Of a stretch of DNA of 54,885 nt, positions 12,784-40,667 are shown in pieces. Below the pieces are notes generated by a model. The model was not told where the DNA came from and ran no database searches. It saw nothing but the letters and a program-made list of their open reading frames with translations. The stretch is from an uncultured Verrucomicrobiota bacterium (GTDB lineage: Bacteria; Verrucomicrobiota; Kiritimatiellia; PWTM01): positions 1 to 54,885 of the forward strand of contig CAYLTB010000002.1 in the NCBI GenBank assembly GCA_964386675.1, in the 5' to 3' direction. The position numbers and the translations under genes were made by a program. Each line of letters opens with the position of its first letter. Positions within the stretch are counted from its first letter, which is position 1.

Positions 12784-13302
12784 TTACGCCAGCCGGTCCT
12801 CGATCAGGCGGCGGCTGCGCGGGTCAAGGCGGGCGATGTCGTCCACGATGAACGTTCCGCCGGCGTGGTCCTTGAACGTGACGCGGCCGTCTTCGCGCAG
12901 CCGGATGTCCTCGGCGTGCTCGACCTGAAGCTCGAACGGGCCGCGGTCCGTCTCGACGTTCCAAACCATCACGTCGAAGCGGTCGTCCACGGCGTCCACG
13001 CGCGTGATCCGCGGGAAGAACTCCTGCGCGGCCAGCTCCTCGGCGATCAGCGCCGCCGTCGCCGGATCGAGTCCGGCGCGCGTGGCCAGCAGGTGGACTT
13101 CCGCGCCGTCCTTGTCGCGGATCGAGAGGTATTCCTCCGGCGCGGTCCACGGGAAGCAGCGGGCCAGCCGCACCGGGCAGACCGGTTCGGCGCCGGGGCG
13201 GTGAAGCGTCAGCCGCCCGCGCTCGTCGCGGGTCAGCCGGATCGGGCCCGCGGATTCCGCGGGACCGCCGGCGTTCTCGGCGCTGGGGGCGGGGTCGTTC
13301 AT
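12784..13302 (-). CDS. DUF1854 family protein
   Basis: 172 aa. RCFPWTAPEEYLSIRDKDG...FFPRITRV...WNVETDRGP...F.V typical of DUF1854. 4-nt overlap with the upstream ABC exporter. Confidence 0.7.
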   Translation of the reverse strand: MNDPAPSAENAGGPAESAGPIRLTRDERGRLTLHRPGAEPVCPVRLARCFPWTAPEEYLSIRDKDGAEVHLLATRAGLDPATAALIAEELAAQEFFPRITRVDAVDDRFDVMVWNVETDRGPFELQVEHAEDIRLREDGRVTFKDHAGGTFIVDDIARLDPRSRRLIEDRLA

Positions 13303-15542: not shown

Positions 15543-15913
15543 GGGCGCAAATCAGCGCCGCATCATCGGCGTCCGCGGGCCCAAAGTCACGCAAGAAGCG
15601 GCTGCCGGCGAACCGCCGCCGGCGTGGGCGAACCGGCCGTTAGGAAGTTGTTGGCGGCGGCGTTGAGACCTGGGCGCGTCGTTCTCGACGCCCTGTTCTG
15701 GATCTGTCTTCGAAGGACGATCCCCGCCCGGGTGGCCTTTTGCCCACTCCCGCAGGGGGACCGGAAACGGAAGAAGAGTGACGGCGTGGTTAGAGTTGCG
15801 CTCGTCGAAGGAACGAGGGATGCGGGGAAGGATGGCGACGATGGGAAGCGATTTTGGAAGAAACCGACGCGAGCCAGGCCCGGCTGAAAAGCCGTGTTTC
15901 GCCGGGTAGACGC

Positions 15914-17591: not shown

Positions 17592-19262
17592 TTACCGGCC
17601 GCGTTCCCGTGTCGCCAGCCACTCGACGGTCGCTTCCTCGACGCGTTGTTGCAGCGTCCGCCGCTCGGCCAGGCCGATGAAAACGCCGTCGGCGCCGACG
17701 ACCGGCAGCTCATCCGTTCCGGTGCGATCCATGGCGGCGCGGGCTTCGAGCAAGCTGGCATTTTCGTCCAGCACCGCCGTCGCCGGATGGGCCGCGTCGG
17801 CCGCGATGATGCCGGTCCAGAGGTGGGTTTCCGCGAGCAGCGGTCTGAGATCGGCGAGGTGAATGAGGCCGCGCAGGCGGCCGTGCGCATCCACGACGGG
17901 GAGCCGCTCTATCCGGTGGTCGGCAAATGCGCGCAACACATGCCGCAGATCGTGGTGTTCCCTCGCGACCACCGGGTCCGGATCGAGAATGTCCCGAACG
18001 GTCAGCCGCTGCAGCACGTCGCGCTCCGCGGCCGCCGTGTCGTGGTGTTCGGGGGCGACCAGTTCCTCGCGGGCGAGGACGCGGTCGCCCAGCACGCGGA
18101 CGGCCCACGCGCCGACCGGGGCGGTCAGCAGGATACTCAGGGCCGCCACGGCGAGGATCGTTTCGCCGGGACCGGTATTCATGCCGGCCGCCGCCATCGC
18201 CAACAGCGGCGCGCCGCCGATGGCCGCCTGCACGGTGGCCTTGGGGATGTAGGAGACGACGACAAACAGCCGCTCCGCAGCCGTGAAATCGCTACCGAGC
18301 AGGCAGACATAGGCGCCGATGCTGCGCGCCACGAGGGCCAGGGCGATCAGGAGCACGGCCGCGGGTCCGGCTTGGAACGCGACTCCGATATTCACCTTCG
18401 CGCCGACGAGCGCAAAGAGGACGATCTCCGCGAAGACCCAGAGCTTTGAGAGTTTTCGCGAGAGCTCGTGCGCCATCGGCTGGCTCTTTTCGAGGATCAC
18501 GAATCCAATGGCCATCACCGCCAGCAACGCCGCGAATGGAACGATGCCTTCAAGCCGCTGTTCGAGCGTCGTCAGCAGCACCGAAATGCCCAGCACGATC
18601 AGCAGCCGCTTGGTGGCGCGCGGATTGAAGCGGCGGAACAGCACGTAGAGCATCCATCCCACGGCCAACCCGGCGCCGGTGCCCAGCAGAATGGACAGCG
18701 GGATGCCGGCCGCCTTCCAGAACAGGTTGGACTTCTCGCCCGTGTACAACCCGATCAGGCCGCTGTAGACGACGATCACAAAGACGTCGTCCAGGGACGA
18801 GGCGGCCAGAATCAGCGTGGGAATGCCCTTCGCCGTCCCTTTTCGGCGTTCGATGAAATCCAGCATCAGCGGCACGACCACGGCCGGCGACACGGCGGCC
18901 ATCACCGAGCCCAGGATGGCGGATTCCAGGCGGGTCAATCCCAGCAGTCGGGGGCCCAGGAGCGTGATGGCCGCACCCTCGAACACGGCCGGCACAAAGC
19001 TCAACAGCAACGCCCGCATCCCGACCCGTCGGAGCGTGTCCTTGCTTAACTCGAAGCCGGCGCGCAGCAGGATGACAATCAGCGCGAGGCGGCGCAGATC
19101 GGAGGAAACCGCCGACAGTTCCGGTGGCAGCTGGTTCAGCGCGTAAGGCCCCAGTGCGACGCCGACCAGCAGCATGCCGACGAGGCCGGGAATTCGCCAG
19201 CGCCGAAAGAGCCAGTCCACCAGCAGGCAGATCACCATCAATTCCGCGATATTCAGTACCAT
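17592..19262 (-). CDS. CPA1-type cation:proton antiporter (NhaP-like) with C-terminal CBS pair
   Basis: About 12 TM segments with Na+/H+ exchanger-like N-terminus (IPGLVGMLLVGVALGP). The C-terminal roughly 140 aa has two CBS-like repeats (VRDILDPDPVV..., ...IGLAERRTL). Confidence 0.85.
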   Translation of the reverse strand: MVLNIAELMVICLLVDWLFRRWRIPGLVGMLLVGVALGPYALNQLPPELSAVSSDLRRLALIVILLRAGFELSKDTLRRVGMRALLLSFVPAVFEGAAITLLGPRLLGLTRLESAILGSVMAAVSPAVVVPLMLDFIERRKGTAKGIPTLILAASSLDDVFVIVVYSGLIGLYTGEKSNLFWKAAGIPLSILLGTGAGLAVGWMLYVLFRRFNPRATKRLLIVLGISVLLTTLEQRLEGIVPFAALLAVMAIGFVILEKSQPMAHELSRKLSKLWVFAEIVLFALVGAKVNIGVAFQAGPAAVLLIALALVARSIGAYVCLLGSDFTAAERLFVVVSYIPKATVQAAIGGAPLLAMAAAGMNTGPGETILAVAALSILLTAPVGAWAVRVLGDRVLAREELVAPEHHDTAAAERDVLQRLTVRDILDPDPVVAREHHDLRHVLRAFADHRIERLPVVDAHGRLRGLIHLADLRPLLAETHLWTGIIAADAAHPATAVLDENASLLEARAAMDRTGTDELPVVGADGVFIGLAERRTLQQRVEEATVEWLATRERGR

Positions 19263-19836: not shown

Positions 19837-20778
19837 CTACCGCGAAGATTCCGATGAATCAACTGCAAATGGCGTCCGTGGTCGCTCCGGGTAGAGCGCC
19901 AGCAGCGCCGGCGCAAAGTCGTCGAGGCGGCGGACGCCGGCGCGCAGGCGTGCGGCGCCGCGGCCCAGCGCGATCAACGGCACGGGATTCAGCGTGTGAT
20001 GGCGCGTCGTGAGGTCCTCGATATTACCGTGGTCGCTGATCAGCGCGAGCAGGCCGCGCCGCGTGCGTGCCCACGGGGCCAGCGCCGTCAGAAACCGGTC
20101 CAGCTTCGCGAGCACCGCCTCAACGTCGCGCCGCTCGCCGCGGTGCGCCGCCAGATCGCTCTCGAAAAATTCGAACAGCGTAAAATCATGGACGCGCGCG
20201 ATGCCCAGCAAATGCGCGGCGGCCGTTTCCGGCGTCAACAACGGCCCGTCGTAGCCGCGGGCGCGGAGCGCGGCGCGGGTGAGATCATGATAGACGGCGC
20301 GGCCGGCCAGCAAGTCGCCGCGGTCCCGCACGGCGCCGAAGGCCGCGAGCGCGGCCGCGGTGGTGACCGAGACGCGCCTCCGTCGCCGGACTTCCTCGAG
20401 GTCGTCCGTAAAGAAAGCGTTCGCGAACGTGGCCGCATACTGCCGGCGGACCAGCTCGGAGAACAGGTTGTGCCGTTCGACGAACGCCCGCAGGCGCGGC
20501 CCCGGCATTCCTTCGACGTGTCGGCCCATACAGGCGGCCGCATTGCGCCCGGTGTACAGCGAGGCTTGGCCGGTCGCGCTCTGCGGCAGCCCCGGCACGC
20601 CCAGGCGTGCATCCACGGGAACGGCGCGGCGCAGCCAGCGCTCAAGGGTCGGGCAAACGCCTTTCCGGATCGGGCCGGCCGCCGGATCGTTGGGTCCGAG
20701 CCCCAGTCCGTCCACAAATACGAGCAGCGTGCGCGGAGCGGGCGCGGCCCGGCAGGGCCTCGGGTCGGGCGCATTCAT
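19837..20778 (-). CDS. Metalloenzyme-superfamily (alkaline phosphatase core / iPGM-phosphopentomutase-like) protein
   Basis: LLVFVDGLGLG near the N-terminus and LISDHGNIED near the C-terminus. Start could instead be 20847. Confidence 0.6.
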   Translation of the reverse strand: MNAPDPRPCRAAPAPRTLLVFVDGLGLGPNDPAAGPIRKGVCPTLERWLRRAVPVDARLGVPGLPQSATGQASLYTGRNAAACMGRHVEGMPGPRLRAFVERHNLFSELVRRQYAATFANAFFTDDLEEVRRRRRVSVTTAAALAAFGAVRDRGDLLAGRAVYHDLTRAALRARGYDGPLLTPETAAAHLLGIARVHDFTLFEFFESDLAAHRGERRDVEAVLAKLDRFLTALAPWARTRRGLLALISDHGNIEDLTTRHHTLNPVPLIALGRGAARLRAGVRRLDDFAPALLALYPERPRTPFAVDSSESSR

Positions 20779-20940
20779 GGGGCACACTATAGTCGGTCCG
20801 GCGCGATTCGTCGCCGTGTCCTGCGCGCCGCGCCTTTCTTTCTCCAAGAGGCTTGCAATACGCCGTTCGGTCTGATAAGCGAAAAGCCCCGATTAGACTT
20901 CCGCGTGCGCGGTGATTCGCGGGCGTATAAAAAAGGCTGA

Positions 20941-22407
20941 ATGAAACCCATCGTCATCCAAGATCAGCCGCGATTGAGTTTCTTTCGCACGGTATGGATC
21001 GCCGTGGACGGCATTCGATACCGGCTGTTCCGCGCCTTGGTCACGGTGGCGGTCATTGCGGTGGCGGTCGCGTTCCTGATGAACATTCTGAGCGAAAGTT
21101 TCATCAAACGCGCGGTGGCCCGGGAGACGCGCGACCGCATCGCGCGCGCGCGCCTCGTGCACGAGTGGGTGGCGCGGTTGACGGCCCCCGGCGACGTGGA
21201 GGGCATCCTCCGCGAACTGGCTGCCGGCCGTCCGGAGGCGCTGGCGGAGGCCGCGCGGTTCGGCGGATTCAACGCGGACGAAGTCGGGACTTTGCGGGAG
21301 TCCGCCGTCCTGGCGGTTCGGACGCTGGACTATCTCAACAGCTTGAACTACGCGCGTCGTCGGCGCCTGGTCCATGCGACGGCCGGGGTGGATATGCTGG
21401 CTTACCTGGCGACCCCGGAAGGCGGCCGCGCCTTCTTCGAGACGCTGGACCGAACGGCGGCGCTGCGGCTGCCGTTCCCGCGCGAGGACCTGCAGCGGCT
21501 GCTCGACGGCTGGCCGGACACGCGCGGCCGCGTGGATCGCATCCTCTCCGGCCGACGCGCGGCCGTTGCCCGCGTGACGGAGGCGCGCGGTCCGCGCGCG
21601 GTGCTGGAGGCGCTGGCCGAGGCGGACGGTCCGTTTGGTGACGCGGTCCGCGCGGCCGGCTTCCGGTTCGATGCGGCGGTGGCGGCGGCGGTCGCGGCGC
21701 AGGCGCGTCGCGAACTGGATATCCGCGCCGTGGAACGCGGACTGGACGTGCGCGCCGTTCGCCAGCTCGTGGCCCAGCACTTCGACGCGTTGCCGGGCGA
21801 CGTGACGGTCATGCAGCTCTGGCGGTTCGCGGAAGCGCCGGAGCGCGCGGAACGGATGTTGGCGGCGCTGCGGTCGGCCGGCGAATCCCGCGCCGGGCTG
21901 ATCGCCGCGCGGATCGGCGAGCTGGCGGCGCACCGGCGGGAGGCCGCCGCGCTGGAGCGGGCCGCGCGGCTGACGATTGGCGTCGGCGGCGGTTGGATGG
22001 GCTTGGGCGAACGGCTCAGCTGGCTGCTGATGGTGTCGATGCTGGTGTGCGCGATCGGCATCAGCAACGCGATGCTGATGACCGTGACCGAACGGTTCCG
22101 GGAAATCGCGACGCTGAAGTGCCTGGGCGCGCTGGACGGCTTCATCATGCTGATGTTCGTGCTCGAGAGCTGCCTGTTGGGCATTGTCGGCGGCGTGGCC
22201 GGCGGCCTGATCGGCGGCCTGATCGGCGCCGGCCGCATGCTGGCGGGATTCGGCGGCGTGGCGGGCGCGGCAATGCCGTGGGGCGACCTCGCCGTCGGCG
22301 TCGGGCTAGCGGTCGCCGTCGGCGTCGGGCTGGCGGCGATCGCGGCCGTGTATCCTTCGTTTCGAGCGGCGCGGCTGGCGCCGATGGAAGCGATGCGCGT
22401 CGAATGA
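20941..22407 (+). CDS. FtsX/MacB-type ABC permease with an atypical all-helical roughly 300-aa loop (operon gene A)
   Basis: TM1 (LVTVAVIAVAVAFLM), then a long Ala/Arg-rich region. Canonical FtsX block follows: ISNAMLMTVTERFREIATLKCLGALDGFIMLMFVLESCLLGIVGG plus two further TMs. Confidence 0.8.
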   Translation: MKPIVIQDQPRLSFFRTVWIAVDGIRYRLFRALVTVAVIAVAVAFLMNILSESFIKRAVARETRDRIARARLVHEWVARLTAPGDVEGILRELAAGRPEALAEAARFGGFNADEVGTLRESAVLAVRTLDYLNSLNYARRRRLVHATAGVDMLAYLATPEGGRAFFETLDRTAALRLPFPREDLQRLLDGWPDTRGRVDRILSGRRAAVARVTEARGPRAVLEALAEADGPFGDAVRAAGFRFDAAVAAAVAAQARRELDIRAVERGLDVRAVRQLVAQHFDALPGDVTVMQLWRFAEAPERAERMLAALRSAGESRAGLIAARIGELAAHRREAAALERAARLTIGVGGGWMGLGERLSWLLMVSMLVCAIGISNAMLMTVTERFREIATLKCLGALDGFIMLMFVLESCLLGIVGGVAGGLIGGLIGAGRMLAGFGGVAGAAMPWGDLAVGVGLAVAVGVGLAAIAAVYPSFRAARLAPMEAMRVE

Positions 22408-23216
22408 CCGTCACGGCAATCCAAACCGGCGCGCCCGCGTCGGCGGCCCGCGGCACGGAGCGCCGCGTGCTGATCCGCACGGTCGGCCTGAAGAAGTCCT
22501 ACCTGAAGAAGGGCGTGCTGACCGAAGCGCTGCGCGGACTCGACGTCGAGATCTTCTCCGGTGAATTCATTTCGGTGATGGGCCCCTCCGGCTCGGGGAA
22601 GAGCACCTTTTTCAATATGATCGGGGCGCTGGACAGCCCCAGCCAGGGCCGCGTGTTCATTGACGAGGTGGACGTCGCGCAGTTGACCGCCGAGGAGCTG
22701 GCCTACCTCCGCTGCCAGAAGATCGGCTACATTTTCCAGTCCTACAACCTCATCCAATACATGACCGCCCTGGAGAACGTGACGACGCCGATGGCCTTCG
22801 GCGGCGTGATGCCGGACGATGCGCGCCGCCGGGGCATGCGGATTCTCGAGATCGTCGGCCTCAAGGAGCGCTGGTTCCACCGGCCCATCGAGATGTCCGG
22901 CGGCCAGCAGCAGCGCGTGGCGATCGCGCGCTCGCTGGCGAACAACCCCAGCGTGCTGCTCTGCGACGAGCCGACAGCCAACCTCGATCTGCACACCGGC
23001 CAGGAAATCCTGGATATCCTCGTGCGGCTGAACAAGGAGCAGAAAGTCACGATCATCTGCGCGACGCACGACCATCGGATGATGAACGTCTGCGACCGTT
23101 TGATGTGGGTGCGGGACGGCCGCATCGAGCGTGTCGCGCGCCGCGAGGATGTGAAGATCGAGATCGGCAGCATCGGCGGCAGGCGCGCGTCCGCGCCGGA
23201 GACGAAGCCTTCATGA
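22404..23216 (+). CDS. MacB/LolD-type ABC ATP-binding protein (operon gene B)
   Basis: Walker A GPSGSGKST, Q-loop IFQSYNL, signature MSGGQQQRVAIARSL, Walker B LLCDEPTANLD, H-loop ATHD. ATGA overlaps on both sides. Confidence 0.9.
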   Translation: MTVTAIQTGAPASAARGTERRVLIRTVGLKKSYLKKGVLTEALRGLDVEIFSGEFISVMGPSGSGKSTFFNMIGALDSPSQGRVFIDEVDVAQLTAEELAYLRCQKIGYIFQSYNLIQYMTALENVTTPMAFGGVMPDDARRRGMRILEIVGLKERWFHRPIEMSGGQQQRVAIARSLANNPSVLLCDEPTANLDLHTGQEILDILVRLNKEQKVTIICATHDHRMMNVCDRLMWVRDGRIERVARREDVKIEIGSIGGRRASAPETKPS

Positions 23217-26200
23217 ATTCCGCCGGCCACCTCCGACGTCTCGGATTCGCCGCCGCCCTGGCGGCGTTCGCCGGACGCGCCCCCGCCGCGCCGCCTTCGT
23301 CCCGGTTTGCCGCGGACCTTGCAGCGCTGACGTCCGCGCCCCACCGGCTGACCGGCACGCCCGAAGGCGGCGCGGCCGCGGCGCACCTCGAACGGCGACT
23401 CCGCGAGATCGGCGCCGAGTGGGTCGTCGTTCAGCCGTTTGCCACCGTGCGCGCGGAGACGCGGCGCTGCGAACTGCGCCGGGCGGAAGGCGCGCCGCTC
23501 GCCCTGCTGCCGATGCGTCCGAACGGGCTGATGCTGCCGACGACTCCGCCGGGCGGCCTCCGCGGGCGCCTGGTCCGCGTGGGCCCGGGCGAGGCGAGCG
23601 ACTTTGCCGAGCGCGAGGTCCGCGGCGCGATCGTCGTGATGGACTTCAACGGTTCCGAGGGCTGGCTGCGCGCCTTTCGGCTCGGCGCGCAGGCGGTGGT
23701 CTTCACGCCGTCCGTCCGGCTCCACGGCACGACGGCCTACCACCTCGACGTGCAGTTGAACCTGCCGCGCTTCTATTACGACGGGCCGGCCGCCGACCTG
23801 CCCGACGGGGTGGAGGTGACGATCGAAAGCGAGATCGTCTGGCAGCCGGCCGTCGGCCGCAATATCGTCGCGTTTTTCCGCGGCACAAATCCCGTCTTCG
23901 CGCAGAACCGCGAGGAGGCGATCGTGCTGAGCGCGGACTACGACAGCTACGGCGCTGTGCCGGAACGGAGTCCCGACGCCCGCGGTGCGGCCAATGCCGC
24001 CGCGCTGCTGAAACTGGCGGAATCGCTGCGCGCTCGCCCCCCCCGCCGTCATACGCTGATCGTCTTTTTCGACGCGCAGTGGAACGCGCAGGAAGGGTCT
24101 TCGACCTTCTACATGGCGCTCGAAGACAAGCACGATCTCGCTTCGGTGGCGAAACGGCGCATGTCGCTCGACGCGGAACGCCAGTTTCTCGACGCGCTGC
24201 GGGGCGCGCTGGCCGAGCCCCACCCGCTGACGACCGCATCGCGGGTGCGGCGCGCGCTGCTCAAGCGGGTCGAAGACGCCGCCAAGAGCGGCGCCTTTGA
24301 AATCGGCGACCGAATGGCCGAACTGCGGCGCGAGCGACTCGCGCTGCGCGCGCAGCTCGGCACGCCGCCGCGCTCGAACCCGCCGCCGGAGATCATCGCG
24401 CAGATTGAGGAGATCGGACGCGAGCTGGACGAGCAACTGCAACCCGAGAAGGACCGATGGAACGACCTGCGCCGGGCGCTGAGCCGCGACCGGTACACCG
24501 GCCTCGCCCCGGAGGTCGAGGCGAAGCTTCAGTTGGCGTATGCGAAAGTCCGCGAGAGCGTCGAGCGAAGAAGCGCCGAGTTGGAACTGGAGGGCGCGCG
24601 GCTGGCGGCCGACGAGCAGCTGCAGGCGAGCCTGAAATCGTACTGGCTGACGCTGCACCTGGCGCTGTTGCTCGGCGACGCGACCGATCGTTGGGGGCTG
24701 ATCATCGGCGGCGATTCCTATTTCCGGCATCCGGACGACAACCCGGGCCTCTACGGCCGGCTGCAGAACGTCTTTCTCCGGGCGTATCGCGACCTCGAGG
24801 CCGCCGGCCGCGCGCCGGAGGCATTCGAGACGGCCACGGCCGACCAGACCCTGACGAACACGCGCATCCTGTTCGCCGGCCGCGGCGGATTGCGGCACGG
24901 CGGCGAGCCGGCGGGCGCCTTCGGTTTCTTCAATGCCGCGCTGGGCACGGTGCAGGAGGCGGCCGGCCGCGACGGGACGCCGTTCGATACGCCCGACCGC
25001 CTGGACGCCGGCCGTATCGAGCGGCAGACGGACGCGATCGCCCGGTTGCTGTTCGGATGTGCGAGCCTCGATGTGGAGGCGTCCCGGCCGGACGCTGCGC
25101 CCGAACCCGGCGAAACGGCCGGCGTCGCGGACCAGGCGGGCCTGTCGTTGCGGCGCGGCATTGTCGGCGGGAAGGAATACGCGTGGAGCCGGTTCGAGCG
25201 CGAGACCACGGCCGGCCCCACCGTCATGGGCATGCTGCCCGGAAGCTCCGTACCCGACACGCCGGTGCCCGGTGCGATGGTATTTTTCATGAATCGGAAC
25301 CCGGCGAGCCTGACCTTCAACGCAGCCAAGCCGCTCAACAGCTCGCTATTTCGCATCCTGCGCACGGACGAAAACGGCAACTACCGCCTCGGACCCTCGC
25401 CGGGCGGCGCCGGCTGGACGGACGCGCGCGGCTTCGCGGCGGTCTTCGACGATCGCGGCGAACTGGTCCTGGCGTCGAACCAGCAGACCCTGCAGCAGGT
25501 CAAGCAGCGGCTCAACGCGTTCCGCGCCCGCGCCGGCGGGATCGTCCTGCCACCGCCGCTGCGCGCCACGCTGCCGGCCGGCTCAACCGTTCGTCTGCTC
25601 TCGGCCTTCGAAAACGGGGACCTGGACCCCCGGAAGCGGCTCCACCTCGTCAACGACGGCGCGATCGCATGGTTTTCGGAGCAGCGCGAGAAGGCGGTCA
25701 AGATCTTCAACTTGGATGCGGTCTCGATGCTCGGCATCGGCCCCGAGCGGTTGGAGGAGGCCGGCGCGGAGGATGCGGCGTTCAACTGGCTCGGCGATGG
25801 GTTCCCGATGATCCCGCGCTGGACGCCCGTGCCGGCGACGCGGCGCTCGGCGGTGGACCTGTGGCGGCTGAACGAGTCGCGGCTGCGCGTGCTGCAGGGC
25901 AAGAACATCATCGACAGCTCGCTGGCGGAATTGCACGGCCGCGTGGAGGACCTGCTGCTGGAAGCGCAGCGCCGGCCGGCAACGCTCCGCGCGGAGGCGC
26001 TCGACGCCGAAGCGCTGTGGGCAGCGCGCCCGGTCTATCGGAAGACCCGCGCGATCATTGACGACCTGGTCTTTGCCGTGCTGATCCTGCTGGGCCTCGC
26101 GGTGCCGTTTGCCTTCGCGATGGAGCGCGTGGTCGTCGGCGCGGTCACGGTGTACCGCCAGATCGGCTGGTTCGTCGTATTCTTCGCGGCCACGTTTGGG

Positions 26201-28126
26201 ATCTTGTTCGTCTCGCACCCGGCCTTCGCGATCGCGAACACGCCGATCATCATCTTCCTGGGCTTCGCGATCCTGACGCTGTCGGGCATGGTCATCTCGA
26301 TCATCATGCGCAAGTTCGAGGTCGAGTTGAAGGCGATGCAGGGGATGACGGCGACCGTCCACGCGGCGGACGTCTCGCGCGTGAACACGGTGCTGGCGGC
26401 GATGCAGATGGGGATCTCGACGATGCGCCGCCGCCCGCTGCGGACGGCGCTGACGGCGGTGACGATTATCCTGCTGACCTTCACGATCTTGAGTTTCGCC
26501 TCCTTCGGCACGCAATCGGGACTGCTACGGCTCTTCGTCGCGCCGGCGCCCGGCTATGCCGGCGCCTGGATGCACGATGCCAACTGGCAGCCGATCGCGC
26601 CGGAGCTGCTGGATACCGTGGAAGGCCGCTGGGGCGCCGACGCCGACGTATGCGGCCGCTGGTGGATCTCGCCGCGCGCGCAGGCCGCCGCCGGCGGCCT
26701 GCTGACGCGCGAGGACGGCACGCGCCCGATCGAGATTCCCGCGGTGCTGGGGTTCGATGCGCGGGAAATCCGCCGCCGGCCGGATCTCGCCGCGCTGGTC
26801 GAGAGCGATCTGGAAGGCGCGATCCAGATCACGCCGGCGGTGGCCCGCGCGCTGGGTGTCGCGCCGGGCGACCGGGTGCGGTTCCGCGGCAAGTCGTTCC
26901 GCGTCGCGCGGCTCACGGACGCGACGGCGTTCTCGTCGGTGCAGGACATGGACGGCGCGAGCGTCTTGCCGGTGGACTTCACCGAGGTGCGGTCCAGCCA
27001 GCCGGCGAGCACCCAGGTTAGCGAGGAAGCCTCGCTGCATGCCTCCGTCAACTGGACGAGCCTGCCGGTGGATTCCGTGGCGATCCTGTCGGCCGCGGAA
27101 GCGCGGGCCATGGGCGCGGCGCTGCACGGCATCGCGGTCTATGCGGCGGACGTGCCGGCGGCGCGCGAGATCGGCGCGGCGCTGGCGCGAATGCTGCCGA
27201 TGCCGGTGGCCGTGACGCAGGAAAACGGCGTCTACCGCCAGGTGCTCGGAACGCTGGTGGCGGCCAGCGGCGCGGCGGACCTGTTTTTCCCGATCCTGCT
27301 GGGCGGCCTGGTGATCTTCGGAACGATGCTCGGCTCGGTGGCCGATCGCGAGCGCGAAATCTACACGTTCAGCGCGCTGGGCCTGGCGCCGCGGCACGTC
27401 GCCACGCTGTTTCTGTCCGAGGCGCTCGTCTATTCGCTGATCGGCGGCATGGGCGGTTACCTGCTGGCGCAAGGCATGGTCCGCATCCTCACCGCGCTGG
27501 CCGAGCACGGCTGGGTGCGCGTTCCGGAAATGAACATGTCCTCGACGAACACGATCGTCACGATCCTGATCGTCATGGCCACCGTGCTCGTTTCGGCGAT
27601 CTACCCGGCGGTCAAGGCTTCGAAGTCGGCCAACCCGGGCTTGATGCGGACGTGGCGGCCGCCGGCGCCCGACGGCGACCGGAGGGACATGATCTTCCCG
27701 TTCACGGTTTCCGAGTACGACCTGACGGGCGTCGTCAGCTTCCTGAAGGAACACTTCGACAACCACAGCGACACGGGGCTCGGTCGCTTCATGGCGCGCG
27801 AGAGCGCGCTGGTCCGGCCGCAGGGCACGCTCGGACTCCGCTCCACGCTGATGCTCGCGCCGTTCGACCTCGGCGTCAGCCAGCGCTTCCACCTGCAGGC
27901 GGTGCCCAGCGAGATCCCGGGCATTGACGAGGTGCATATCCGCCTCGAACGGATTTCGGGCCAGCCGAAAGACTGGCAGCGGCTGAACCGCGTCTTCCTG
28001 AAAGACCTGCGCCAGCAATTCCTGATCTGGCGCTCGATCCCGCAGGAGGCCATGGAAACCTATCGCGAGCGGACGCTGACGCACTTCGGCGCCGCGGCGG
28101 CGGAGACGAAACCGACGGCGAACTGA
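23213..28126 (+). CDS. 1637-aa fusion: signal/anchor + PA/M28 peptidase-like ectodomain + coiled coil + large ectodomain + FtsX-type permease module(s) + C-terminal cytoplasmic domain (operon gene C)
   Basis: N-terminus MNSAGHLRRLGFAAALAAFAG. PA-like GAIVVMDFNGSEGW...GAQAVVF. M28-like blocks with altered ligands (see findings). TM cluster from about 26060. MRRRPLRTALTAVTIILLTF permease start at 26423. FtsX block EREIYTFSALGLAPRHVATLFLSEALVYSLIGGMGGY. Confidence 0.8.
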   Translation: MNSAGHLRRLGFAAALAAFAGRAPAAPPSSRFAADLAALTSAPHRLTGTPEGGAAAAHLERRLREIGAEWVVVQPFATVRAETRRCELRRAEGAPLALLPMRPNGLMLPTTPPGGLRGRLVRVGPGEASDFAEREVRGAIVVMDFNGSEGWLRAFRLGAQAVVFTPSVRLHGTTAYHLDVQLNLPRFYYDGPAADLPDGVEVTIESEIVWQPAVGRNIVAFFRGTNPVFAQNREEAIVLSADYDSYGAVPERSPDARGAANAAALLKLAESLRARPPRRHTLIVFFDAQWNAQEGSSTFYMALEDKHDLASVAKRRMSLDAERQFLDALRGALAEPHPLTTASRVRRALLKRVEDAAKSGAFEIGDRMAELRRERLALRAQLGTPPRSNPPPEIIAQIEEIGRELDEQLQPEKDRWNDLRRALSRDRYTGLAPEVEAKLQLAYAKVRESVERRSAELELEGARLAADEQLQASLKSYWLTLHLALLLGDATDRWGLIIGGDSYFRHPDDNPGLYGRLQNVFLRAYRDLEAAGRAPEAFETATADQTLTNTRILFAGRGGLRHGGEPAGAFGFFNAALGTVQEAAGRDGTPFDTPDRLDAGRIERQTDAIARLLFGCASLDVEASRPDAAPEPGETAGVADQAGLSLRRGIVGGKEYAWSRFERETTAGPTVMGMLPGSSVPDTPVPGAMVFFMNRNPASLTFNAAKPLNSSLFRILRTDENGNYRLGPSPGGAGWTDARGFAAVFDDRGELVLASNQQTLQQVKQRLNAFRARAGGIVLPPPLRATLPAGSTVRLLSAFENGDLDPRKRLHLVNDGAIAWFSEQREKAVKIFNLDAVSMLGIGPERLEEAGAEDAAFNWLGDGFPMIPRWTPVPATRRSAVDLWRLNESRLRVLQGKNIIDSSLAELHGRVEDLLLEAQRRPATLRAEALDAEALWAARPVYRKTRAIIDDLVFAVLILLGLAVPFAFAMERVVVGAVTVYRQIGWFVVFFAATFGILFVSHPAFAIANTPIIIFLGFAILTLSGMVISIIMRKFEVELKAMQGMTATVHAADVSRVNTVLAAMQMGISTMRRRPLRTALTAVTIILLTFTILSFASFGTQSGLLRLFVAPAPGYAGAWMHDANWQPIAPELLDTVEGRWGADADVCGRWWISPRAQAAAGGLLTREDGTRPIEIPAVLGFDAREIRRRPDLAALVESDLEGAIQITPAVARALGVAPGDRVRFRGKSFRVARLTDATAFSSVQDMDGASVLPVDFTEVRSSQPASTQVSEEASLHASVNWTSLPVDSVAILSAAEARAMGAALHGIAVYAADVPAAREIGAALARMLPMPVAVTQENGVYRQVLGTLVAASGAADLFFPILLGGLVIFGTMLGSVADREREIYTFSALGLAPRHVATLFLSEALVYSLIGGMGGYLLAQGMVRILTALAEHGWVRVPEMNMSSTNTIVTILIVMATVLVSAIYPAVKASKSANPGLMRTWRPPAPDGDRRDMIFPFTVSEYDLTGVVSFLKEHFDNHSDTGLGRFMARESALVRPQGTLGLRSTLMLAPFDLGVSQRFHLQAVPSEIPGIDEVHIRLERISGQPKDWQRLNRVFLKDLRQQFLIWRSIPQEAMETYRERTLTHFGAAAAETKPTAN

Positions 28127-28140
28127 TCCCTTGGCGCGAC

Positions 28141-30144
28141 ATGCACCCGGACAAAGAACTCGAACAATATCGCTCGATCATGGAGGTGCCCTCGACCTTC
28201 CAGGAGGGCTTCCGCTGGTCGTCGCTGCTGGGCGCGATCTTCGTCGCGTTCCTGATGGTGCCGGGGGCGATCTACATGGGACTGCTCGCCGGCACGATGG
28301 AGATCGGCGCGGCGGCGTCCTGGGTGACCGTGATCCTGTTCATTGAGGTGGCCAAACGCGCGCACCGCAATCTGAACAAGTCGGAAATCTTCGTCCTGTT
28401 CTACATGGCTTCGACAGCCATGGGCATGCCGTTTTCGGGCCTGCTGTATCAGCAATTCTTTATCAACAGCGATGCCGCGGCCGCCACCGGCATCGCCGAG
28501 CAGCTTCCGCGCTGGTATGCGCCGCCGCTGGGATCGGCCTCGTACGGCGACCGGACGTTCTTCCGGGCGGAGTGGCTGCCGGTGATCGGCATGATGATCT
28601 TCGGCTCGTTCTTCAGCCAACTGGCCAACATGGTACTCGGCTACGGGCTGTTCCGAATCGCCAGCGACGTCGAGAAACTGCCGTTCCCGATGGCGCCGAT
28701 CGGCGCACAGGGCATCATGGCGATGGCCGAGGACATGGAGGAAAAGACCCGGAAGTCGGCCGAGTCGTCCTGGCGCTGGCGCGTGTTCGCGATCGGCGGG
28801 GCGATCGGCCTGGGCTTCGGCTTCATTTACCTGTTGCTGCCGACGCTGACCGGTGCGCTGACCGGCACGCCGGTGCAGATCTTCCCGATTCCGTTCTCCG
28901 ATTTCACGCAGCAGACGGGCCGATTTCTGCCCGCCGTCGCCACCGGCATCACCTGGGACTTCGGCCAGGTCATCCTGGGCATGGTCATGCCGTTCTACGG
29001 CATTATCGGAGGCTTCATCGGCTTTTTGTCGATCCTGACGGCCAACCCGATCCTGTACCGGCAGGGGATCCTGCGCACGTGGAAGTTCGGGGACGACACG
29101 ATCGCGACGATCTTCAACAACAACATGGATTTCTATTTCAGCTTCCACATCGGCGTCTCGGTCGCCATCGCGGCGGCCGGCATCATCGCGGTCGTGGGCA
29201 GCGTCCGGAAAATGCGCCGCGCGCGCGCCTCCAACGTCGCGGCAACCGCCGGCTCCGCGGTCCAGGGTGGACGCGGCGATATTCCGTCGTGGGTGGTGAT
29301 CGCGGTATATGTCTTCATCGTGGTGACCTACATCTGGGTCTCCGCGGCCCTGCTTCGCTGGCACCACGGCGGCTGGACGCCCGGCATCCGCAACCTGGTG
29401 CTGATCTTGATCGTGCTCGGTTTCGCCTACACGCCGTTGATCAGCTATGTCACCGCGCGGCTGGAGGGCATGGTCGGCCAGGTGGTCGAGATTCCGATGA
29501 TCCGCGAGGCTGCGCTGATCCTCAGCGGCTACCGCGGCGTCGCCTGCTGGTTTCTGCCAATGCCAATCGCGAACTACGGCGCGATGACGGTGTTCTACCG
29601 GCAGTGCGAGCTGACCGGCACCCGGTTCACCAGCATCTGGAAGACCAAGTTCTTCCTGTACCCGATCATCCTCCTGTCCTCGATCTTCTTCATGAACTTC
29701 ATCTGGGGCCTCGACAAGGTGCCCTCCAACGCCTACCCCTACGCGCAGCGGATCTGGGAGCTGAACGCCGCCAACCAGACCATCATGTTCTCGGCGACGC
29801 TCGGCGAATTCTCGCGCTTCGAGCAGGCCTTCCGCTGGCTGTATGTCTCCATCGGCGCCGCCTTCGGCAGCGTGCTGTTCTTCGGGTTGCGCTGGTTGGG
29901 CGCGCCGGTCATGCTGACCTACGGCGTTGTGCGCGGGCTCGGCCAGAACGTCACGCATTCGCCGATTCCCCAGCTGGTGGGCGCGCTCATCGGCCGTTTC
30001 TATTTCCAGCGGCGGCTCGGTCTGAAGTGGCGGCAGTACATTCCCGTCGTCGCCGCCGGGTTCGCCTGCGGCATGGGTCTGATCACCACGGTCGGCGTCG
30101 GCGTCACCTTCCTGAACAAGGCGATCATCAAACTGCCGTTCTGA
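28141..30144 (+). CDS. Large polytopic membrane protein, family unassigned (operon gene D)
   Basis: 667 aa with more than 12 hydrophobic segments throughout and protein-like composition. 14-nt gap from gene C. Possible OPT-like transporter, but not established. Confidence 0.7.
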   Translation: MHPDKELEQYRSIMEVPSTFQEGFRWSSLLGAIFVAFLMVPGAIYMGLLAGTMEIGAAASWVTVILFIEVAKRAHRNLNKSEIFVLFYMASTAMGMPFSGLLYQQFFINSDAAAATGIAEQLPRWYAPPLGSASYGDRTFFRAEWLPVIGMMIFGSFFSQLANMVLGYGLFRIASDVEKLPFPMAPIGAQGIMAMAEDMEEKTRKSAESSWRWRVFAIGGAIGLGFGFIYLLLPTLTGALTGTPVQIFPIPFSDFTQQTGRFLPAVATGITWDFGQVILGMVMPFYGIIGGFIGFLSILTANPILYRQGILRTWKFGDDTIATIFNNNMDFYFSFHIGVSVAIAAAGIIAVVGSVRKMRRARASNVAATAGSAVQGGRGDIPSWVVIAVYVFIVVTYIWVSAALLRWHHGGWTPGIRNLVLILIVLGFAYTPLISYVTARLEGMVGQVVEIPMIREAALILSGYRGVACWFLPMPIANYGAMTVFYRQCELTGTRFTSIWKTKFFLYPIILLSSIFFMNFIWGLDKVPSNAYPYAQRIWELNAANQTIMFSATLGEFSRFEQAFRWLYVSIGAAFGSVLFFGLRWLGAPVMLTYGVVRGLGQNVTHSPIPQLVGALIGRFYFQRRLGLKWRQYIPVVAAGFACGMGLITTVGVGVTFLNKAIIKLPF

Positions 30145-30892: not shown

Positions 30893-33295
30893 ATGAGCCG
30901 ACGCAGCGTTCTGGCGGCCCTGCTGGGCGTTGCGGCGCTGTCGGCGGTCTCGTTCTACAACCTCTACGTCCTCCGCAATACGAACCTGGTCGGTTCGTAC
31001 CTGCCGGTGGGCGTGTTCGGGGGCCTCCTCCTTCTCGCGATCCTTTCCCAGTGGTTCCGGCGCGGGGCGGGCTCGCCGGCCGGCGTGGGCGCGGCCGTCG
31101 CCGTGCTGCTGTTCGGGTGCGGCATCGTCGGCTCCGCGCTGCTGGACCACGCCTCGACGCTGGCCATGCTCCCCTGGCGGCTGGACCGGTTGTATCCGGA
31201 CTGGCGTGGCGACCCGGCGTTGCCGGACGCGGCGGCCATCCGCGACGAAGTGGCCCTCGCGCGGGCGCTGGCGAATGCCGCCACGGCCCCGCCCGGCGAT
31301 CCGGCCGGCGTCATCGCCCGACGGATTCCCGAGGCCCTTCGGACGCGGGTCCGCACCCGCGAGTATGCGTCGGATCTGGTCGGACGCGAGGCGTGGCGCG
31401 AGGCGCTGTACGTCGCGCTGTCCGATCCGACGCTGGCCGACGAGGTGCCGCCGGAACGCCGGCCACCGCTGCCAAACTACATTCGCCGTTGGTTGCGGCG
31501 TCCCCCACAGGAACGGACGCCGAATGAAACGCTCGCTGTGAACCGCGCCCTGCTGGACGCGGCCTTCCCGCGGGAGATCGTCCCGCGCCGTCCTTCCGCA
31601 CTGGACCTGGCGCCGCCGGTCATGCTGGCCGATCCGTCCGCGGCGCCGGCGGTTGCACTGGAAGGCTTTGCCACGGGATTGGGGGAACCGAATCGGCCCT
31701 TCTCCTTCCGGGAAGTGCCCTGGGCCGCCTGGCGGCGGACGTTCGGGTTTTGGGGGCCGATGATCCTCGCGATGATCGTCATCGTGACCGGCCTGGCCCT
31801 GGTGCTGCACCGGCAGTGGTCGGAACATGAGCGCCTGCCCTATCCGGTGGCGGAGGTGGCGCGCGCCCTGCTGCCCGAGCCGGGCCAGACCGTCGCCGAG
31901 GCGCTCCGCCGTCGAGCTTTCTGGGCGGCCTTCGGTCTGGTGTTCTGCGTTCACGGCGCCAATTACGCCGCCCAATGGTGGCCGGACTTCGTGATTCGCG
32001 TGCCGCTCGAAATCGATCTGCGGCCGCTGCTACAGATCGCGCCGGTGATGCAGCGCCATTACACAATGCAATTGTTCCGGCCCACGCTGTACTTCTCCGC
32101 GATCGGACTGGCGTTCTTCCTGTCCTCCGATGTTGCGCTTTCGCTCGGTATCGGGCCGTACCTATTCTCGGTCTTGGTTGGAATCGCGGCGGGTCTCGGC
32201 TATGCCTTTGGAGGCGGGTTCCTGACGCAGAGTCTGCAAAGCCAGTTCAACGCCGGCGCCTACACGGCCATGTTTTTCGCGATCCTCTATTCGGGACGCC
32301 ATTACTACCTTTCGGCGGCACGGCGGGCGCTGGGTCTGCCGGCCCGTGATTCCGTGGAAGCAGGGGCTGTGTGGGGGGCGCGTGCTGCGGCGCTGGGCAT
32401 GGCCGTTTTCGTCGGCGGGCTCATGGCGGTCGGGGTCGAGCCGGCGCTGGCGGTGCTCTACACGCTGGGCGTCGTGATGATCTACACTGTGTTGAGCCGG
32501 CTGCTGGCGGAGGCCGGCGTGTTCTATATGCACTCCGGTTTCTTTCCCTGCGTGGTTCTGTGGAGTTTTCTGGGCACGCAGGCGGTCGGCTACGAGCAAT
32601 TGCTGTTGCTCGGGCTGGTCACGGCCATGTTTTTGAGCGACCCGAAAGATGCCCTGATGCCGTTCGCGATGATGGGCCTGCGGATCGCAGAGCGCTGCGG
32701 CGCGCGTCCGGCGGCGGTCGCCCGCTGGGGTGCGATCGGCGCCGCGCTCGCGTTGCTCATCGCCGCTCCGACCATGATCTATCTGCAATACCGACACGGC
32801 GCTCTGACGGCGGGCCACCCGTGGATGCACACCCATGTTCCGCGCGGCGCGTTCGTCCGCGCTTCGGCGATGACCCGCACGCTCCAGGCGCAGGGCACGC
32901 TCGGAGAGGCCGCCGCCATCCGTGGCCTCGCGCGCTTCGGTCGCGCGACGCCCCAGCCGGAGCAGGTGGCCGCTTTCAGTGCGTTTTTTGCGCTCACGCT
33001 GCTCTTCACCTTCCTGCGTCACCGATTCGCGCGCTGGCCGTTCCACCCGCTGATCTTCCTGGTCATGGGCACCTACCAGTCCAGCCTGATGGCCTTCTCG
33101 GTGCTGCTCGGGTGGGCCGTCAAGGGATTCGTCATGAAATACGGCGGCGCGCGTGCCTACCAAGGACTCAAACCAGTGATGATCGGACTGGTCGCCGGGG
33201 AGATCATGGCCGCCACGCTGCCGCTGGCCGTTGGCGCGATCTACGCCGCTGTCACCGGTCAGGCGCCGCCCCAGTTCCGCATCCTGCCCGGCTGA
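30893..33295 (+). CDS. Large polytopic membrane protein with a roughly 200-aa soluble insert, family unassigned (operon gene F)
   Basis: 800 aa. Start MSRRSVLAALLGVAAL at 30893, downstream of the track ORF start. Many TM segments. The C-terminal block GWAVKGFVMKYGG..Y..KPVMIGLVAGE resembles GALIGRFYFQRRLG..W..IPVVAAGFACG of gene D. Confidence 0.7.
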   Translation: MSRRSVLAALLGVAALSAVSFYNLYVLRNTNLVGSYLPVGVFGGLLLLAILSQWFRRGAGSPAGVGAAVAVLLFGCGIVGSALLDHASTLAMLPWRLDRLYPDWRGDPALPDAAAIRDEVALARALANAATAPPGDPAGVIARRIPEALRTRVRTREYASDLVGREAWREALYVALSDPTLADEVPPERRPPLPNYIRRWLRRPPQERTPNETLAVNRALLDAAFPREIVPRRPSALDLAPPVMLADPSAAPAVALEGFATGLGEPNRPFSFREVPWAAWRRTFGFWGPMILAMIVIVTGLALVLHRQWSEHERLPYPVAEVARALLPEPGQTVAEALRRRAFWAAFGLVFCVHGANYAAQWWPDFVIRVPLEIDLRPLLQIAPVMQRHYTMQLFRPTLYFSAIGLAFFLSSDVALSLGIGPYLFSVLVGIAAGLGYAFGGGFLTQSLQSQFNAGAYTAMFFAILYSGRHYYLSAARRALGLPARDSVEAGAVWGARAAALGMAVFVGGLMAVGVEPALAVLYTLGVVMIYTVLSRLLAEAGVFYMHSGFFPCVVLWSFLGTQAVGYEQLLLLGLVTAMFLSDPKDALMPFAMMGLRIAERCGARPAAVARWGAIGAALALLIAAPTMIYLQYRHGALTAGHPWMHTHVPRGAFVRASAMTRTLQAQGTLGEAAAIRGLARFGRATPQPEQVAAFSAFFALTLLFTFLRHRFARWPFHPLIFLVMGTYQSSLMAFSVLLGWAVKGFVMKYGGARAYQGLKPVMIGLVAGEIMAATLPLAVGAIYAAVTGQAPPQFRILPG

Positions 33296-38346: not shown

Positions 38347-38353
38347 TAGCCGA

Positions 38354-38399
38354 TTCCAAAGGTTGAAAACCGCGGGGCCGGTTTTCCCAAGGGTTGGAA
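38354..38399. repeat. Double-dyad repeat, copy B (TTCCAAAGGTTGAAA-N15-TTCCCAAGGGTTGGAA)
   Basis: Begins 8 nt from the hypF start codon. Same order and orientation as copies A and C, slightly degenerate. Confidence 0.75.
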
Positions 38400-38626
38400 A
38401 TAGAACCGGGCTCTTGATCCGAGCCAGGAAAGCGCGCCGGCCGGAACCGGACCCGGACCGGCGCGCAGACGATGCGCGCGCCACTCGCGGAACCGTGGGT
38501 CCTTCACATCGGCGCGTGACGCGCCTCGGCCTGAAGTCGGGGTCATGTGCTCGGGAAACATAGCGCATCGGCGCGGTCCGCGCCGAGCCGGGAAAGCGGA
38601 TCGAGCGGCGCGAAGCGCTCGGCCGC

Positions 38627-38650
38627 GGCGCGCAGGGACGGCGCGCCTTT
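38627..38650 (+). terminator. GC hairpin plus TTT immediately 5' of the group II intron (terminator-like insertion site)
   Basis: GGCGCGC-agggacg-GCGCGCC-TTT, then A, then intron GTGCG at 38652. Confidence 0.45.
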
Positions 38651-38651
38651 A

Positions 38652-40529: not shown

Positions 40530-40667
40530 CCGGTGTTCGCCGGCCGATTCTCCCGAGGCCGACGCCGCGCCGGAGGCATCGAAAGCCTTCGCGCTTGCCG
40601 GGGCCGCGGGCGGGGTTGTATGAGAGCAGCACCGCGCGCGAGGTCGCGCGCGGCGGGGGAACGAGCC

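Follow-up and report, generated by a model that had tools for sequence, protein, structure and literature searches.

A predicted M28/PA pseudo-peptidase fused in cis to an FtsX-type permease, encoded in a conserved ABC operon of Verrucomicrobiota and other bacteria

The stretch of DNA analysed here, called the window below, comprises 54,885 nucleotides (nt) of contig CAYLTB010000002.1 (NCBI GenBank assembly GCA_964386675.1) from an uncultured Verrucomicrobiota bacterium (GTDB lineage Kiritimatiellia; PWTM01). We identify in it a gene for a 1637-residue protein, termed the giant protein, in which a predicted M28 peptidase-like ectodomain is joined to an FtsX-type permease module, and which lies in a conserved cluster with a second FtsX-family permease, two ATP-binding cassette (ABC) ATPases and polytopic membrane proteins. 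The gene and its parts are listed below (aa, amino acid positions; TM, transmembrane; AF2, AlphaFold2; pLDDT, predicted local distance difference test score).

23213–28126, + strand: giant fusion protein gene, ATG at 23213 to stop at 28126, 1637 aa (open reading frame (ORF) listing, homologues, and GC content at third codon positions, GC3)
23213–23284, + strand: Sec-type signal peptide, aa 1 to ~24 (RR, LGFAAALAAFA, G), as read from the sequence
23300–24127, + strand: M28-like fold, first half, with the inserted PA domain (profile, Pfam, AF2 and Foldseek, ligand audit)
23510–23842, + strand: PA domain, ~aa 100–210, inserted in the first half of the M28-like fold
aa 239–300, + strand: vestigial metal-site blocks LSADYDSYG (aa 239–247), DARGAANAAA (aa 255–264) and NAQEGSSTF (aa 291–299)
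24128–24640, + strand: four-helix, coiled-coil-like insertion in the M28 fold, aa 306–476 (AF2 helices)
24641–25060, + strand: M28-like fold, second half, aa 477–616 (Foldseek span, weak HMMER segment, column counts)
25130–25822, + strand: beta-rich periplasmic domain, aa ~640–870 (AF2 strands, pLDDT mostly 80–92)
25835–26062, + strand: periplasmic helical stalk, aa 875–950 (AF2 helices 875–896, 902–920 and 925–976), running into the first TM helix
26063–26308, + strand: 3-TM bundle, aa 951–1032 (Kyte-Doolittle hydropathy peaks, helices aa 952–1030, nt ~26066 on; high conservation)
26309–26443, + strand: conserved cytoplasmic linker or elbow with near-invariant columns, ending in ...GISTMRRRPLRT
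26444–27628, + strand: single FtsX/MacB-type permease module (Pfam, PDB profile, Foldseek, AF2), with TM1 at aa 1078–1098, a Porter/Sabre-type ectodomain at aa 1099–1355, and TM2, coupling helix, TM3 and TM4 at aa 1356–1472
27635–28123, + strand: family-specific cytoplasmic tail, aa 1475–1637, beta-alpha-beta4-alpha-alpha (AF2, pLDDT 70–90)

The landmarks that an earlier note had picked out from the letters alone (motif blocks, PA strings, helices, TM segments, FtsX block and tail) all lie where it had put them. Hydropathy marks a short N-terminal hydrophobic segment and helices at aa 952–970, 984–1002, 1012–1030, 1080–1098, 1358–1376, ~1400–1425 and 1448–1466. Two AF2 models were used, one of aa 1–1075 (mean pLDDT 81.5, predicted template modelling score 0.80) and one of aa 936–1637 (pLDDT 72.7, ectodomain ~90).

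The giant protein is encoded by one uninterrupted ORF. Its start codon shares bases with the stop codon of the ABC ATPase gene in front of it (ttcATGAat), and the GTG at 23105 given by the ORF finder falls within that gene and is not its start. GC3 is 0.84–0.93 per 600-nt block, without a compositional seam. A search of 5.8 billion proteins retrieved 106 relatives, ~95 of them full length (1550–1800 aa) and with the same domain order; these are 41–86% identical at 97–100% coverage and come from JGI, ENA, NCBI and Logan assemblies. Those that have a name are annotated as 'FtsX-like permease family protein', as 'M28 family peptidase' or as 'hypothetical'. The shorter database entries inspected are N-terminally truncated fragments. 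An assembly chimera or frameshift, raised beforehand as a way in which the fusion could be spurious, is excluded by the uninterrupted ORF, the uniform GC3 and the many full-length homologues from independent assemblies. In one metagenome-assembled genome the giant gene is split into products of 1434 and 212 aa, apparently by a frameshift (L005:10001–14940). One relative reported as 100% identical (P0001, on a 70,858-nt JGI contig) reads DRWDMIFPF where the window reads DRRDMIFPF (~27683, aa 1491), and thus stems, nearly identical, from a different strain or assembly.

Scanning GTDB with one genome per species, we found a relative of the giant protein encoded in 173 genomes. The 80 genomes listed of these 173 belong to Victivallales, Lentisphaeria, Kiritimatiellia, Verrucomicrobiota, Opitutales, Planctomycetota, Brocadiia, Sumerlaeia and Omnitrophota. 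A cultured organism, Oligosphaera ethanolica DSM 24202, has the whole cluster (locus L022). Among the 80 listed genomes the half of the protein that comprises permease and tail is 56–85% identical across the Planctomycetes-Verrucomicrobia-Chlamydiae (PVC) group and the other phyla, which suggests strong constraint and probably an important function.

Profile and predicted-structure comparisons assign the N-terminal ectodomain to the M28 aminopeptidase fold with an inserted PA domain, as had been proposed. A family profile (A1; 17 members, aa 1–1075) matches the Aneurinibacillus PA-domain aminopeptidase 2ek8 with E 5.6e-12 over aa 28–310 and Bacillus subtilis YwaD with E 1.7e-8; matches to PaAP, nicastrin (E 4e-3) and TfR1 (E 1e-2) are weaker. 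Pfam M28 (PF04389) reaches E 0.0077 in the window protein (15.3–16.4 bits, under the gathering cut-off of 21.3) and matches 12 of 17 homologues checked (E<=1), the best at 7.9e-10. Six of these 17 weakly match Pfam Nicastrin (PF05450; best E 1e-4); the window protein does not, and a presenilin-type partner was also not found. Foldseek searches with the model of aa 1–1075 return 2ek8 (2.8e-17), BSAP/YwaD, PaAP, TfR1 and GCPII at E values of 1e-17 to 1e-12, and the best matches are all M28 proteins that carry an inserted PA domain. The profile alignment runs continuously through the PA region with 2ek8 residues 13–291 and with YwaD, and the string GAIVVMDFNG...AQAVVF is PA-like; Pfam PA itself is matched neither in the window protein nor in the 17 homologues.

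The fold had been placed within the first ~330 residues, with heptad-like helices after it. Both elements are present, but the fold is predicted to extend to aa 616, around rather than before the helices. Foldseek aligns ~600 query columns to targets of 410–480 residues, and together with the secondary-structure map this makes the helices between aa 312 and 474 an insertion of ~170 aa inside the M28 fold. According to AF2 and Foldseek the fold probably resumes at aa 477–616, where a weak colinear HMMER segment matches 2ek8 residues 372–400; a profile of the second half alone (A3) found no sequence match in the PDB. The insertion helices (AF2: aa 312–333, 346–381, 392–424 and 433–474, nt 24146–24634) have pLDDT values mostly of ~90. 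They carry a conserved WNDLRR motif at aa 416–421, and W416, R421, R453 and E456 are invariant or almost so in the homologue alignment. In two relatives, P0067 (~aa 440–490) and P0167 (~aa 560–620), a much-extended insertion contains two added hydrophobic, TM-like helices arranged as a hairpin, which suggests that the tip of the insertion may lie at the membrane surface.

The metal site of this fold has apparently been lost across the family. Ligand positions were taken from the HMMER profile alignment to 2ek8 and their columns counted over 97 full-length homologues, and they read as follows.

Position 242, first His ligand (His1; canonical HHDS): A-x-(L/Y)-DS; D in the window; in the family N 34, H 13, P 13 and others
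Position 258, bridging Asp (canonical GAnDDASG): GAR-GAAN, with a one-residue deletion; G in 77/97
Position 289, catalytic Glu (first E of FGAEEnGLiGS): Q in the window; Q in 71/97, E in 14/97
Position 290, ligand Glu (second E of FGAEEnGLiGS): W in the window; A in 72/97
D489, fourth ligand, Asp, assigned by motif: kept in 92/97
Position 588, fifth ligand, His (His5; canonical HTxxDT): EGTPxDT; G588 in 95/97

At positions 242, 258, 290 and 588 the window protein has D, G, W and G, and the family has N/H/P, G, A and G. None of the 97 sequences keeps at least three of the five canonical zinc ligands. The placing of His5 at G588 draws on the known motif and on a colinear HMMER segment that is insignificant when taken individually. 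The intact His/Asp/Glu/Asp/His set that would point to an enzyme was sought in the profile alignment to 2ek8 and not found, and the proposal of a pseudo-peptidase is well supported by these alignments: the ectodomain is, as predicted from its sequence, metal-free and catalytically dead. One detail of the initial reading shifts; the block NAQEGSSTF is present, but the EE pair of active enzymes aligns with Q289-W290 and not with Q293-E294. The pocket nonetheless retains near-invariant polar residues (D244 95/97, R257 92/97, N261 92/97, R279 97/97, D287 93/97, D489 92/97, and also E587), and their conservation argues for a retained binding function and not for decay. The window protein and its four closest relatives read FFDAQWNAQEG where the family consensus is FFDxQARGHxG.

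Behind the ectodomain, sequence and model comparisons place a single FtsX module that is closest to LolE, LolC and MacB, in line with the MacB-type permease half recognised at the outset. Pfam FtsX (PF02687; E 3e-11, 43.9 bits against a cut-off of 25.5) at aa 1359–1471 is the sole above-threshold Pfam match in the giant protein. The TM1–ectodomain–TM2–coupling helix–TM3–TM4 topology is present in both the hydropathy profile and the AF2 model, with TM1 at aa 1080–1098 by hydropathy and an ectodomain of ~257 aa. Profile matches in the PDB are 5xu1, MacB, LolF, YtrF and LolC. With the permease model, Foldseek returns LolE (3.3e-12), then LolC, pneumococcal Spr0695, MacB, HrtB, YtrF and YbbP (1e-5), with FtsX (1e-4 to 1e-3) and BceB weaker; the alignments to LolE, LolC, MacB, HrtB and YtrF cover 450–530 columns. 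The linker ahead of TM1 ends in ...GISTMRRRPLRT, which, set beside MacB and LolC N-termini, is the canonical N-terminal lead-in of FtsX-family permeases. The beta-rich domain at aa 640–870 has no Pfam match in the window protein or in 17 homologues.

The ~160-aa tail, for which no family had been recognised, has no Pfam, NCBIfam or PDB sequence match. It contains 36 invariant columns in 21 sequences. A tail profile run without a word index against 1.84 billion cluster representatives (50% identity) retrieved 1520 clusters, 1230 of them at E<=1e-10, and in nearly all of the 150 clusters listed of these 1520 the tail sits at the extreme C-terminus of proteins of 1550–2100 aa. Judged by these matches, the tail appears to occur essentially only in the giant family. 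Its secondary-structure order in AF2 is compatible with the SRPBCC/START helix-grip fold. Weak local Foldseek matches of START/Bet v1 type (3lyd, Ara h 8, CSBP, MSMEG_0129 and YPO0625; E 2e-3 to 7e-3, 116–173 columns) were returned with the query range unreported, so that their link to the tail is only probable, and we regard a START/Bet v1-like tail as tentative.

The giant gene is flanked by the following genes, here with the two additional upstream genes as they occur in O. ethanolica.

20941–22407, + strand: FtsX488, partner FtsX-family permease of 488 aa, with TM1 at aa 32–50, an ectodomain of ~310 aa and TM2–4 at aa 362–470 (Pfam FtsX 1.3e-12, hydropathy profile)
22404–23216, + strand: ABC ATPase 1 of LolD/MacB/FtsE type (Pfam ABC_tran 1.9e-29); its ATG overlaps the FtsX488 stop; alternative GTG at 22467
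28141–30144, + strand: OPT-like (oligopeptide transporter-like) polytopic membrane protein of 667 aa, encoded straight after the giant gene here and in the related loci; 56% identical to its orthologue in locus L001
30154–30876, + strand: ABC ATPase 2 of LolD/MacB type, 53% identical to ATPase 1, catalytic motifs intact
30893–33295, + strand: DUF6785 + DUF6784 polytopic membrane protein, 800 aa (Pfam DUF6785 3.8e-61, DUF6784 6.9e-20)
L022:3379–4287 and L022:4293–4679: genes for the ~300-aa protein and the PqqD-like protein of O. ethanolica, upstream of the FtsX488 gene

The ATPase 1 gene has an ATGA overlap at both ends, with the FtsX488 gene and with the giant gene, to which it is translationally coupled. 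Walker A, signature, Walker B-Glu and H-loop are intact in both ATPases. Pfam OPT aligns with almost all of the L001 orthologue of the 667-aa protein (9.3e-07; 28.3 bits, cut-off 25.8), and this weak match points to the window protein as a possible distant relative of the OPT superfamily. By tblastn over 85 related loci, the order FtsX488–ATPase 1–giant–OPT-like–ATPase 2 is kept in virtually all those whose flanks are long enough, in Lentisphaerota, Kiritimatiellia, Verrucomicrobiota, Planctomycetota, Brocadiia, Sumerlaeia and Omnitrophota, and most loci have one or two DUF6785 genes directly up- or downstream. When the other flanking ORFs were clustered, two more recurrent genes emerged, upstream of the FtsX488 gene in most other lineages. 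Of 58 loci whose upstream flank reaches 2 kb or more, 49 encode a PqqD-family protein of ~130 aa (34–39 bits against a cut-off of 23.4), which is RiPP-recognition-element-like (RiPP, ribosomally synthesized and post-translationally modified peptide), and 42 encode a soluble protein of ~300 aa without a Pfam, NCBIfam or PDB match. Sequence searches found no structures for the OPT-like, DUF6785 and ~300-aa proteins, and a word-indexed search for distant DUF6785 contexts gave close relatives only.

Several observations on the surroundings stand on their own. The OPT-like and DUF6785 proteins have a common short motif after a TM helix, SDVEKLPFPMAP in one and SEHERLPYPVAE in the other ('E-x-LP(F/Y)P'), which resembles the conserved motif 'L-x-(F/Y)-P-S-G-T-A' of OPT/YSL transporters. 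At one locus a gene for a 23S-rRNA-intervening-sequence protein lies between the OPT-like gene and ATPase 2 (L005:17135–17566). The distant giant protein P0100 is 35% identical and has the ~300-aa gene (L003:8970–9869) as the sole cluster gene beside it; another, P0096 (L004, 1386 aa), is missing its C-terminal part and may be a pseudogene. In the window, an ORF at 19996–20940 (+ strand) that ends at the operon start was rejected as Arg-rich noise without homologues; the real gene there is 19837–20847 (- strand; Pfam Metalloenzyme superfamily, 8.3e-13), which is not conserved beside the cluster elsewhere. Further window neighbours encode a type IV ABC exporter (13299–15551, - strand; ABC_membrane + ABC_tran), a Na+/H+ exchanger with CBS domains (17592–19262, - strand), a HypF carbamoyltransferase (36004–38673, - strand) and a GHMP-kinase/nucleotidyltransferase fusion (40401–42587, + strand).

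We propose that the giant protein is probably the large subunit of an asymmetric type VII ABC mechanotransducer, of the MacB/LolCDE/FtsEX class, with its ligand receptor fused in cis. The chain runs from the signal peptide through ~920 periplasmic residues (M28/PA, beta domain, stalk) to the 3-TM bundle, the FtsX module and the cytoplasmic domain. Type VII systems use two coupling helices, one per FtsX module, and because the giant protein has a single module it would most likely pair with FtsX488, as LolC does with LolE; the permease–ATPase–permease gene order equals lolC-lolD-lolE. The two paralogous LolD-type ATPases may form the nucleotide-binding dimer that drives this pair. ATP binding and hydrolysis would then move the periplasmic domains and change what the vestigial groove and the coiled-coil insertion hold or release. 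We favour a peptide or protein terminus as the ligand, since the aminopeptidase-derived pocket with its conserved Arg, Asp, Asn and His residues, the OPT-superfamily neighbour and, in most lineages, the PqqD-type peptide chaperone all come from peptide-handling families; this is the weakest step of the scheme. The OPT-like and DUF6785 membrane proteins may act with the complex.

Several points weigh against this proposal. The heterodimer and the use of both ATPases are drawn from gene content, gene order and the coupling-helix count. The M28 second half and the fate of ligands 4 and 5 depend on structure prediction and the weak colinear segment, and the clade of the window protein has altered otherwise conserved pocket residues (G255D, A290W, R291N, H293Q). 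The OPT assignment is weak, the 667-aa window protein itself having no Pfam match, and homology between the OPT-like and DUF6785 proteins is not established (hhalign 2.5%, short motif only). The PqqD-like and ~300-aa genes are absent from the 55-kb window (hmmsearch, E<=10) and from the loci of its nearest relatives (L007 and L008). A conserved small ORF that could encode a precursor peptide was not found near the clusters, where the candidates were low-complexity or antisense artefacts only. Finally, the distant giant proteins P0100 (L003) and P0096 (L004) have no adjacent FtsX, ATPase or OPT-like genes.

Other explanations of the same cluster fare less well. The best of them, which we consider unlikely, is a Lol-like extractor in which FtsX488, the giant protein and the LolD-like ATPases would take lipoproteins, lipopeptides or some other hydrophobic constituent of the envelope out of the inner membrane. 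The M28/PA domain would then accept or sort this cargo in the periplasm, and the START-like tail would bind a lipid. The best structural matches of the permease module are LolE and LolC in LolCDE–lipoprotein complexes, LolD is the best NCBIfam match of both ATPases, and the cluster shares with LolCDE its gene order and two different FtsX-family permeases with Porter/Sabre ectodomains beside LolD-type ATPases. The weak START/Bet v1 matches, tentatively from the tail, would suit lipid binding, and YbbAP-TesA and HrtBA extract hydrophobic molecules (PMC12646458). However, all the cluster proteins miss the Lol equivalog cut-offs, and by far: 35 against 362 bits for FtsX488 (LolC/E), 12.3 against 473 for the giant protein (LolC), and 212.6 and 225.8 against 307.75 for ATPases 1 and 2. 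The cluster has two ATPase genes where LolCDE has one, it adds OPT-like and DUF6785 partners, and no LolA- or LolB-like gene is conserved in it. The giant protein itself adds ~1075 N-terminal residues and the ~160-aa tail to a Lol-type permease, and the lipid-binding role leans on a tail assignment that is itself tentative, given the unreported query range.

Less likely again is a cis-fused analogue of FtsEX-EnvC, in which ATP would gate the activation or scaffolding of a separate hydrolase of the cell wall, in peptidoglycan remodelling or division of PVC bacteria; the analogy to FtsEX that the earlier note had drawn seems reasonable as such. EnvC is reported to have a catalytically dead (LytM) peptidase domain and a long coiled coil, to bind the FtsX ectodomain and to be switched by the FtsE ATPase (PMC7668044). 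The giant protein would likewise join a dead peptidase fold to a ~170-aa helical insertion with the invariant surface motif WNDLRR, so that in both cases a type VII motor would move a hydrolase-related periplasmic domain with a long helical element, and the cross-phylum conservation suits a housekeeping envelope role. The details differ, whether the partner is EnvC, PcsB or RipC: the dead peptidase here is of the M28/PA type and neither LytM/M23 nor CHAP, it shares one chain with the permease, and the helices sit within the peptidase fold itself. The M28 fold is that of aminopeptidases and is not known as a peptidoglycan hydrolase activator, and the cluster contains no conserved amidase or other hydrolase gene and no EnvC-, PcsB- or RipC-like gene. 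The permease module is nearer to LolE, LolC and MacB than to FtsX in Foldseek, as given above. NCBIfam FtsX models score ~20–31 bits against cut-offs of 225–255 on FtsX488, where the weak MacB match also lies far below its cut-off, and do not match the giant protein at all; FtsE scores 188–204 against 265 bits on the ATPases. The OPT-like and PqqD-like neighbours suggest peptides over cell wall.

It is improbable that the giant protein is a self-sufficient duplicated permease in the style of ADOP, YbbP or BceB, in which a degenerate first FtsX half would consist of signal-anchor, ectodomain and 3-TM cluster; the earlier note had considered this for the 3-TM cluster. The N-terminal hydrophobic helix, large ectodomain and three TM helices do mimic such a half, and ADOP (TIGR03434) tops the NCBIfam list for the giant protein, but at 39.8 against a cut-off of 622.3 bits and limited to the true FtsX block. 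In hhalign the 3-TM bundle reaches a probability below 0.3% against both the giant protein's own FtsX block (TM2–4) and FtsX488, whereas that block and FtsX488 match each other with 98% in the same comparison. In AF2 a three-residue turn joins the first two bundle helices at the position of the FtsX coupling helix, which is absent, and the N-terminal helix (pLDDT <50) is not packed on the TM bundle. The N-terminus does not look like an FtsX TM1; homologues have equivalent short hydrophobic stretches that resemble cleavable Sec signal peptides. Together the hhalign result, the missing coupling helix and these N-termini speak against the bundle as an FtsX half, and a separate FtsX permease adjoins the giant gene in nearly every locus. 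In YbbAP-TesA of Escherichia coli, too, a type VII ABC system works together with a hydrolase-fold protein of the periplasm, yet YbbP is a true duplicated FtsX permease (Foldseek E 1e-5, against 3.3e-12 for LolE) and TesA a separate, active esterase.

Least probable is an ectodomain still active as an (amino)peptidase through a non-canonical metal site or other catalytic residues: D244, D287, D489, E587, H293 and R257 are strongly conserved in the vestigial pocket, with His at 242 in 13/97 and Glu at 289 in 14/97, but no homologue has at least three of the five ligands, Gly has replaced the bridging Asp in 77/97 and His5 in 95/97, and three of the lost positions correspond to residues that single-zinc M28-fold enzymes such as glutaminyl cyclase use.

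The proposed pseudo-peptidase receptor also has parallels outside ABC systems. PA-domain M28 aminopeptidases (2ek8; BSAP/YwaD, 6hc6; PaAP, 8acr) share the fold and the PA position, but these enzymes keep the dizinc His/Asp/Glu/Asp/His set and the catalytic Glu that the giant family has lost, and they are soluble secreted proteins of ~400–500 aa without a helical insertion or membrane part. The most familiar M28/PA pseudo-enzymes are receptors of eukaryotes (transferrin receptor, nicastrin, PSMA relatives). Like the giant ectodomain, TfR1 and nicastrin have an M28(+PA) fold without the metal ligands in a membrane-tethered ligand receptor or substrate gate, and the Foldseek E value with TfR1 is ~1e-13. 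Unlike them, the giant protein is bacterial and fused to an ABC permease instead of carrying a single TM anchor (TfR) or belonging to gamma-secretase (nicastrin); its insertion is a four-helix bundle, and it has extra domains. We see no sign of common descent beyond the M28 family, and the resemblance is one of kind.

In the published literature we found nothing on an M28–FtsX fusion architecture, on the giant family or on DUF6785. The suggestion of a new architecture thus holds in that it is undescribed in the literature, although the family itself is already plentiful in public data under generic names. Partner proteins have been argued to define what uncharacterised type VII systems do, and identifying the partner has been put forward as the route to classifying them (PMC12646458). 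The giant protein is, on balance, best classed as a type VII ABC mechanotransducer with a pseudo-peptidase receptor partner fused in cis, in a distinctive conserved operon.

A broader and clearly more speculative possibility is that the whole cluster of six to eight genes encodes a previously unrecognised PVC-wide envelope machine, comprising the ~300-aa protein, PqqD-like chaperone, DUF6785 protein, FtsX permease, ATPase 1, giant protein, OPT-like protein and ATPase 2. Two different ATPases and two different permeases, as a fully asymmetric type VII motor, might here drive the cis-fused pseudo-peptidase receptor, which resembles nicastrin and the transferrin receptor, and pass a peptide or protein to or from the OPT-superfamily proteins. 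If true, such a machine would form a functional class apart from Lol, FtsEX, MacAB, Bce, Hrt and YbbAP.

A type VII ABC system takes its definition from the partner that it moves in the periplasm: EnvC, LolA, MacA-TolC, TesA or BceS. In the giant family the partner appears to be built into the permease and to be an M28/PA pseudo-enzyme. The cis fusion would fix stoichiometry and proximity, which may make the family a convenient system for studying mechanotransmission onto a receptor domain, and the cluster gives testable handles on three families to which no function is assigned, namely DUF6785/DUF6784, the C-terminal tail domain and the divergent protein related to OPT. The size of the family, its conservation across the PVC group and its operon suggest an important, unstudied envelope function in bacteria of unusual cell biology.

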